A stretch of DNA of 64,000 nucleotides from Alphaproteobacteria bacterium. GTDB taxonomy: Bacteria; Pseudomonadota; Alphaproteobacteria; CALKHQ01. Below the pieces are notes generated by a model. The model was not told the DNA's origin, did not search any database, and saw only the letters and a program-made list of their open reading frames with translations. The DNA lies in the NCBI GenBank assembly GCA_965227515.1, contig CBDDFZ010000001.1, positions 1,792,001-1,856,000 of the forward strand, written 5' to 3'. A program made the position numbers and the translations under genes. Below, one piece after another: positions 1,735 through 1,885 of this stretch. Each line of letters starts with the position of its first letter. The stretch's first letter is position 1.

Positions 1735-1885
1735 CTGCACGCCGGATTGCATGCGGGCGAAAAGCCCATACTTCCGTTCGCGTGTACGACCGCGACGCCG
1801 GCGGGTCCGAGATCCTCACGGTCGCATAGACCAATCCATTACTCGGAGTGCCCGTCGGCGTCCCCTCCCTACCAAGAAGGGAGAA
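1735..1885 (-). ncRNA. Predicted IS110 bridge RNA (5' hairpin + target-binding loop + donor-binding loop)
   Basis: Stems 1865-1870/1878-1883, 1794-1805/1851-1862, 1806-1811/1842-1847, 1820-1823/1829-1832, 1738-1742/1780-1784 and 1755-1758/1764-1767; loop guides AATGGAT, GAGGAT, ACGGAAG and CATGCAAT match target and donor; RNA ends approximate. Confidence 0.85.

Follow-up and report, generated by a model that had tools for sequence, protein, structure and literature searches.

The DNA analysed here, called the window, is a stretch of 64,000 nucleotides (nt) from an Alphaproteobacteria bacterium (GTDB lineage Bacteria; Pseudomonadota; Alphaproteobacteria; CALKHQ01), covering positions 1,792,001 to 1,856,000 of the forward strand of contig CBDDFZ010000001.1 in assembly GCA_965227515.1. 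Close to its start, the minus strand carries an IS110-group element of 1,152 bp (746-1897) with one AT on each side (1899-1898 and 745-744). Read along this strand, the flank ending in GGAATGG is followed by the first AT, a 177-nt non-coding left end starting from TGCATG (1897-), an open reading frame (1720-761), a 15-nt right end finishing in ACGGAAG (752-746), the second AT, and a right flank that begins CCTCGGC. The junctions therefore read GGAATGG-AT-TGCATG on the left and ACGGAAG-AT-CCTCG on the right. Taken together, the evidence set out below makes it very likely that this is an intact IS110-group insertion sequence whose left end encodes a bridge RNA reading both the insertion site and the element's own ends. 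The element, its gene, and its surroundings comprise the following features.

744 to 1899, minus strand: whole insertion, the IS110-group element with an AT core at both junctions, placed by the junction sequences, a second copy, the element length, and an empty site.
1900 to 1906, minus strand: left target GGAATGG, from the junction reading and the empty site.
739 to 743, minus strand: right target CCTCG, the start of a repeated palindromic element resembling the repeated extragenic palindromic (REP) type, from the junction reading and a repeat count.
746 to 760, minus strand: right end, 15 nt past the stop codon, consisting of CCAAAC (758-753) and the left-donor bases ACGGAAG (752-746), from the sequence and an inverted-repeat test.
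761 to 1720, minus strand: recombinase gene, 319 amino acids from the ATG at 1720, from Pfam, NCBIfam, alignment to the IS621 structure, and a 20-protein alignment.

The gene product matches PF01548 (N-terminal DEDD RuvC-like domain, E 1.4e-12) and PF02371 (C-terminal transposase domain, E 9.8e-18), both above the cut-offs, and reaches 178.3 bits against a cut-off of 140 with the NCBIfam equivalog NF033542, 'IS110 family RNA-guided transposase'. Structure matches are the transposases of IS621 (8wt6, E 7.8e-23) and ISCro4 (9t56, E 2.6e-22), which are distant sequence kin only. D15, E59, D101, D104, and S241 align to the residues of 8wt6 that correspond to D11, E60, D102, D105, and S241 of IS621, whose catalytic roles are described in the structural paper (PMC11208158), and all five are invariant in the alignment of 20 related proteins. 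The ATG at 1720 has no Shine-Dalgarno sequence. An alternative TTG start (1705-1703, 314 amino acids) lies 5 nt past GGAGG (1715-1711) and coincides with the consensus methionine of relatives, and is probably the likelier of the two. A preliminary description of this DNA had called the protein, at about 320 amino acids, compact, but its size is normal, the IS621 chain in the PDB having 328 residues. No named insertion sequence closer than ~41% identity was found in the collections searched. That value belongs to the ISMex17 family, the nearest named element among plasmid records, whose transposases likewise fall within the IS110 family, and the best metagenomic proteins are 72% identical. Among 60 other genomes from kin of the host there was one match at E <= 1e-40, 34% identical. 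Homologues were therefore drawn from genome contigs, since close relatives of the host yielded nothing to compare.

The extent of the element is given by two further sources. A second copy in the same genome (copy B, G000:C1:1350246-1351445) is 97% identical. Its similarity to the window copy begins at ATGG-AT on the left, the rest of that flank being unrelated, and on the right continues through AT-CCTCGGC into a related repeat. The junction of copy B is also present in a contig of sequencing run X9. The empty site, GGAATGG-AT-CCTCGGC with a single AT, occurs in contigs of two other public sequencing runs, X2 and X3, with flanks identical over 111 and 90 nt. In these contigs position 710 of the window is linked to 1898 via 34 other letters, which finish in right-flank bases followed by the single AT, and in those strains the neighbouring palindrome has a different interior. 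The core is thus single before insertion and present at both junctions afterwards. Because the divergence points of copy B and the empty site agree on them, the boundaries are fixed independently and not post hoc, and the target GGAATGG-AT-CCTCG reconstructed in the preliminary description is borne out by the empty site.

Some further observations concern the copies themselves. About 17 of the ~30 differences between the two genomic copies fall within ~90 bp of the gene (window 1520-1620), and the only difference in the left end is at 1887. This clustering suggests patchy recombination between variants together with constraint on the RNA. In run X3 the contig holding the element has a word depth of ~41 compared with ~5–7 for the flanking contigs, and over window 600-2060 several different loose ends are seen at 745 and 1898. 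These hint at several copies at other REP sites, although contig depth is not copy number.

The same data bear on the alternative that the element, though a genuine IS110 member whose left end resembles a bridge RNA, has become an immobile relic with guides that are fossil matches. The genome holds just two copies despite 48 perfect 11-bp target strings, one of them ~30 bp away and inverted, and a 3% difference between the copies means that the duplication is not very recent. However, both copies have open frames without stops and keep the five catalytic residues, and the segment 1885-1732 is identical between them while the gene carries about 30 differences. The locus is also empty in X2 and X3 with otherwise identical flanks, which implies insertion or excision within the close lineage, and the depth in X3 adds a weak hint of several copies. 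A relic is therefore improbable, and the element is probably active, as far as its letters and those of its copies can tell.

In the left end the following features were placed.

1732 to 1897, minus strand: stretch of the left end matched by R1, the covariance model of the family, holding the bridge RNA and the first left-end bases, 164.4 bits, E 6.6e-39 at G000:C1:1793732-1793897.
1861 to 1882, minus strand: 5' hairpin of the bridge RNA, a 9-bp stem in the minimum free energy (MFE) fold.
1796 to 1860, minus strand: target-binding stem-loop with outer stem, middle stem, internal loop, and apical hairpin GGUC/GACC, from the MFE fold and family consensus.
1732 to 1791, minus strand: donor-binding stem-loop with GGUC (1791-1788)/GACC (1735-1732), CACGC (1784-1780)/GCGUG (1742-1738), and apical GGGC (1767-1764)/GCCC (1758-1755), from the family consensus.
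1834 to 1840, minus strand: left target guide (LTG) AAUGGAU, five nt of left flank plus the AT core, from string match and family flank comparison.
1812 to 1817, minus strand: right target guide (RTG) GAGGAU, reverse complement of the AT core plus CCTC, from string match and family flank comparison.
1771 to 1777, minus strand: left donor guide (LDG) ACGGAAG, equal to the last 7 nt of the right end and stopping short of the core, from the exact 7-mer downstream of the gene in 28 of 31 loci.
1746 to 1753, minus strand: right donor guide (RDG) CAUGCAAU, reverse complement of the AT core and the first six left-end nt, TGCATG, from string match and shuffles.

The four guide strings lie exactly, to the base, where the preliminary description had put them on the minus strand (AATGGAT 1840-1834, GAGGAT 1817-1812, ACGGAAG 1777-1771, and CATGCAAT 1753-1746). 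Sequence in the first internal loop corresponds to the insertion site, AATGG-AT-CCTC, located at the base of a REP-like palindrome that recurs across the genome, and sequence in the second corresponds to the joined ends of the element, ACGGAAG/AT-TGCATG. The strand logic agrees with that reported for IS110 bridge RNAs (Durrant et al. 2024, PMC11208160). When the 177-nt left end was shuffled 200,000 times, the strings arose by chance in 0.46%, 4.0%, 0.84%, and 0.085% of cases, a product of ~1.3e-9 before the right order is required. The donor guides had been described as matching their junction in the same way as the target guides. This is so for the RDG, core included, whereas the LDG matches seven nt of the right end and no core. 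The core is included in LTG, RTG, and RDG, and the four-way core reading of IS621 is not seen here. The LDG is followed by U-AU and not directly by the core. Reading this UAU as a bulged core match was considered and rejected, as AT falls within those three bases in just 2 of 25 distinct guide sets and the own core stands in register in none.

Whether such matches are general was assessed in homologues, using the covariance model and guide test that the preliminary description had put forward. Of 73 homologous loci found (L numbers), the 30 used are nearly full-length, have an identity of 51% or more, and include upstream DNA. Fragments, loci of less than 50% identity, and L057, L062, and L064 were excluded. 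The 30 loci and the window make up 31 rows, which collapse to 25 distinct guide sets, and each guide was compared with its own flank and with randomly dealt flanks in 20,000 shuffles. The upstream regions align from the conserved TGCATG onward, and the own left-donor 7-mer is found exactly downstream of the gene in 28 of the 31 rows (not in L042, L048, and L051). The LTG gave 150 matches to its own left flank against a shuffled mean of 117.5 (n=23) and the RTG 129 against 97.3 (n=22), values that no shuffle reached in either case. RDG against the own left end gave 155 versus 148.6, reached in 3 of 20,000 shuffles (n=23). All six RTG positions matched in 19 of 22 guide sets and five in the other three, while the 7-nt core part of the RDG matched fully in 17 of 23 and at six positions in 6. 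Both target guides thus follow their own flanks.

Position by position, the LTG matches its own flank at 0.85–1.00 and the flanks of other loci at 0.41–0.52 where these vary. On the left the guide signal spans five flank bases and the core, with -7, -6, and -2 as discriminating positions; on the right it spans the core and four flank bases, and the positions that discriminate are +1 to +3. Longer guides are unsupported because position -8 is weak (0.45 in own pairs, 0.28 in other pairs) and the per-position test of the family sets found no guide signal in the right flank beyond +4. The core covaries as well. Both junctions are GT in L036 and L068, whose corresponding guides contain GGGU, GAC, and GCAAC. 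In L035 and L043 the left end begins TGCTTG and the guide is GAAGCAAU, and the variable position -3 of the right end (A/G/T) tracks the left donor guide. At least eight different combinations of right guide and flank occur.

Nine insertions in the set (L039, L043, L044, L047, L048, L050, L051, L059, and L065) have GT at the left junction. The right junction is AT in seven of them, that is, in all where it was found (not L048 and L051). At the first core position, 6 of the 9 left guides carry G and those of L039 and L065 carry A, and the right guides have U. Wobble pairing could let such guides accept an AT or a GT core, and heteroduplex cores after strand exchange would yield mixed GT/AT junctions.

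It has to be considered that the left end might instead be a structured 5' leader regulating translation or stability of the transposase, with flank matches that stem from insertion into palindromic repeats and not from guidance. The target does belong to a repeated palindrome, the second stem-loop stops ~12 nt before the first possible start codon, and small RNAs had been proposed to modulate expression in ISPpu9. A leader would not be expected to covary with the flanks across elements that sit in different sequences, yet the LTG and RTG track theirs, including the change from AT to GT in the core, and a palindromic target cannot explain donor guides that match the element's own two ends. We regard a regulatory leader as very unlikely.

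The fold noted in the preliminary description, a 5' hairpin and two stem-loops with internal loops, is recovered from two sources, the hairpin and first loop in the MFE fold and the second loop from the family consensus. The single-sequence fold of the left end has -79.3 kcal/mol (z = -3.13), with 2 of 200 shuffles as good, and shows UAAUGGAU on the 5' side of the target internal loop and UGAGGAU on the 3' side. Each homologue has a 5' hairpin at the same place, but MAFFT does not align these, so it is seen per sequence only. Structural covariation was tested on 33 pairs in six helices of a 24-sequence MAFFT alignment. These are 94.3% paired, compared with 30–47% when the partner is slid by 1–3 columns, and 13 pairs have double changes against 3.5 in shuffles (0/500 reach this). 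The outer helix of the target loop is 99.2% paired, with compensatory change in 8 of 11 pairs. The donor-loop helices are paired at 95.8%, 100%, and 95.8%, two of their pairs showing compensatory change. The transcript proper probably begins near 1883, as judged from a -10-like hexamer described below. Together with the protein family, the catalytic residues, and the empty site, the family and stem covariation uphold the identification of an IS110 bridge RNA with the order LTG-RTG-LDG-RDG and an AT core.

The strand of the RNA can be read from the helices, several of which contain conserved G-U pairs (e.g. UG in 11 sequences at columns 56/101). On the other strand these would be A-C, which makes the minus strand the RNA strand. 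An alternative is a functional RNA on the plus strand, antisense to the left end and of the Rfam sX15 type. The only Rfam match within 500-2300 is indeed sX15 (RF02234) on the plus strand at 1722-1867. However, it scores 21.5 bits against a gathering score of 55 (E = 0.85), and the promoter geometry and the strand logic of the guides, like the G-U pairs, fit the minus strand. A plus-strand RNA is hence extremely improbable. No Rfam 15 family reached its gathering score in 500-2300, so no Rfam 15 model catches the bridge RNA encoded on the minus strand. As sX15 is a small RNA of Xanthomonadaceae and its match is antisense to the bridge RNA, the question arises whether sX15 itself was defined on an IS110-type left end.

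The reach of the family model was also surveyed. In 33 loci R1 scores >130 bits for the RNA immediately upstream of the gene, with lower scores in L097 (103 bits), L075 (49), L057 (cut, 48), L080 (34.6), and L028 (32). In the own genome only the two copies are found at high score, plus one match at E 0.375, and there are no orphan copies of the bridge RNA detectable with R1. At E <= 0.01 there was no match in the Poribacteria loci of 30–37% identity (L069-L074, L098, L105), in the OZ245893 record (L086-L096, L101, L106), or in most other distant loci. R1 therefore does not describe the whole IS110 group. Six weak extra matches (18.6–22.5 bits) were recorded, five overlapping true matches on the opposite strand and one elsewhere in L059; the five are taken as echoes of palindromic stems.

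The termini hold further short features.

1810 to 1811, minus strand: target-loop handshake guide CU, directly 3' of the RTG and complementary to the right-end AG (CU in 31/31 rows, AG in 30/31).
1744 to 1745, minus strand: donor-loop handshake guide CC, directly 3' of the RDG and complementary to the left-target GG (CC 31/31, GG 29/29).
759 to 764, minus strand: -35 box TTGACA overlapping the stop codon TGA (763-761), with TTGACN in 24/27 parsed right ends, or 25 counting L068 by eye.
1890 to 1895, minus strand: -10-like hexamer CATGTT, 3/6 to TATAAT, 17 nt downstream of the right-end -35 box once the ends are joined.
1887 to 1892, minus strand: left arm GTTTGG of a subterminal inverted repeat, pairing with CCAAAC (758-753) over 6 bp here.

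Complementarity of handshake guides to non-cognate DNA has been described by Hiraizumi et al. (2024, PMC11208158), and a promoter reconstituted across the joined ends of IS110 elements by Durrant et al. (2024, PMC11208160). In the family, a -35 motif of the TTGA/TTCA type lies within 16 nt upstream of the left-donor 7-mer in 27 of 28 right ends. The hexamer in 26 left ends is CATGTT in 16, CATGAT in 5, and CATGGT in 3. In the joined ends the two motifs are separated by 17 nt in 21 of 27 cases, by 16 in three, by 18 in two, and by 17 in L068 as read by eye. A subterminal inverted repeat of at least 3 bp is found in 16 of 24 members, the sum being 71 compared with 49.8 in shuffles (8/20,000 reach this). 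Family elements measure 1077–1409 bp.

Several points count against this interpretation of the left end and have to be set beside the evidence for it. The homologues are kin, several with common targets (CGTGG-AT, AT-GGCC, AT-GCCC), and the shuffle counts consequently overstate independence. The 100% own-match of the LDG is circular, because the left-donor match was used to place the right end, and this guide lacks the core, unlike in IS621, with the own core following in none of the 25 guide sets. The left flank of copy B matches its guide over 4+2 nt and not 5+2. Regarding structure, the donor stem-loop is absent from the single-sequence MFE fold and appears in the family consensus only, and the middle helix of the target loop is just 71.3% paired in the MAFFT alignment, which is tentatively attributed to alignment register shifts. 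The handshake bases fit the model but gain no support from covariation because they are invariant in the family. At the promoter, the -10-like hexamer is weak, and a scan of the integrated locus returned no promoter sites, although such a scan is blind to joined ends. Transcription of the bridge RNA, its start site, and its 3' end are all predicted by analogy.

By the same analogy with IS621, a cycle of movement can be proposed. The element would excise as a circle, and its joined ends would bring TTGACA of the right end 17 nt upstream of CATGTT of the left end to form a promoter. From this junction promoter both the bridge RNA (~1883 to ~1732) and the recombinase gene would be transcribed. 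A recombinase tetramer would hold the RNA, each loop pairing with both strands of target or donor around the AT core, and Ser241 would cut the top strands beside the core before these are swapped. The CU and CC handshake dinucleotides would then pair with the incoming strand, and resolution of the Holliday junction would leave one AT on each side. Both the binding of RNA by the protein and RNA-directed recombination are carried over here from the IS621 system.

The closest systems, described in three publications (PMC11208160, PMC11208158, and bioRxiv 10.1101/2025.05.14.653916), are IS621 of E. coli and IS622/ISCro4. The present element shares with IS621 a two-domain DEDD/Ser recombinase with all five catalytic residues aligned, and a bridge RNA in the long left end that runs from 5' hairpin to target loop to donor loop. 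Both also have a dinucleotide core and a natural, REP-like target of 11 bp. In both, handshake dinucleotides follow the RTG and RDG on the 3' side, the inverted repeat is short and subterminal, and the right end contains a -35 box. The core differs, being AT here and GT in some relatives, whereas that of IS621 is CT. The guides are split 5+2/2+4, while Durrant et al. (2024, PMC11208160) analyse natural sequences with an LTG of nine bases and an RTG of four. The LDG leaves the core unread, in contrast to the IS621 core, which the same paper includes in all four pairings. The 15-nt right end with its -35 box overlapping the stop codon is another difference.

Among other RNA-guided or repeat-targeting relatives, the IS1111 group with its seekRNA belongs to the same recombinase superfamily and follows the same RNA-guided logic. 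In IS1111 elements the RNA is located in a long right end, and the subterminal repeats measure 7–17 bp. Here the non-coding RNA is in a long left end (177 nt), the right end is short (15 nt), and the repeat is 6 bp, which places the element in the IS110 group proper and not with the seekRNA type. ISPpu9 and ISPpu10 of Pseudomonas putida also belong to the IS110 family, and their insertion sites in the host are repeated extragenic palindromes or conserved intergenic sequences (PMC12288879, bioRxiv 10.64898/2026.03.19.712850). Their host and target repeat are different. REP targeting by IS110 elements has long been known.

The preliminary description had gone further and proposed a candidate new programmable bridge recombinase, the novelty of which is overstated. 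According to Durrant et al. (2024, PMC11208160), bridge RNAs are predicted in 85.7% of ISfinder IS110 elements, covariation is reported over thousands of pairs, and IS621 has already been reprogrammed to AT, GT, and TT cores, albeit less efficiently. The protein family itself is named RNA-guided. By its sequence the element is best described as an unnamed newcomer to the well-described IS110 bridge-RNA family and not as a new system, and its clade may already figure among the thousands of IS110 elements and bridge RNAs predicted by Durrant et al. A literature search for natural AT-core IS110 elements found nothing in the collection of papers it covered, although the wording may simply not be in use. 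More tentatively, it is possible, if doubtful at present, that this alphaproteobacterial clade is a natural bridge-recombinase lineage working on an A/G-T core, with a 5+2/2+4 guide split, an LDG that leaves the core unread, and wobble-tolerant guides for AT and GT. If so, the clade would offer a ready scaffold for cores other than CT, on which reprogrammed IS621 reportedly works less efficiently, and reading the core four times would not be obligatory. The analysis adds one natural bridge system and ~25 relatives with guides paired to sites to a family in which genome-writing tools are currently being sought. In practical terms the system is of modest interest, for its natural AT/GT core, very short right end, and defined 11-bp target of REP-like type. 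Within the genome, the finding accounts for a 1.15-kb insertion between the two members of a REP pair and opens no new question.

The target repeats extend well beyond this locus. The 11-mer target AATGGATCCTC occurs 48 times in the genome against ~1 expected, and ATGGATCCTC 73 times against ~5.9. Most target copies lie at the base of hairpins with the pattern ATCCTCGGG-ACAA-GCCCGAGGAT. REP-like repeats, for example at window 700-743 and 1900-1990, consist of ATGGATCCTC, then mostly a short hairpin and a stretch ending in AAGGATGAC(A/G)A. There are at least two subtypes, and the repeats are often arranged as inverted pairs. On the plus strand at 1927-1939, ~30 bp from the left end of the element and inverted, AATGG-AT-CCTC recurs as an unoccupied site that both target guides match perfectly. 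This site is the partner arm of the REP-like pair that received the element.

The genome also harbours a second IS110-group element in four copies (L030-L033), at G000:C1:85241-86167(+), C1:3321422-3322348(-), C2:1183204-1184130(+), and C1:2520699-2521625(-). It has the same architecture, with TTGACA in the right end and loops that match flanks and ends by eye, and R1 matches directly upstream of its gene at 18.9–24.1 bits. In contrast, the proteins are only 39–40% identical, and by eye its core is CT and its LDG runs into the core. The second element is inserted beside a different G+C-rich palindrome, and the genome therefore has two bridge systems for two repeat families.

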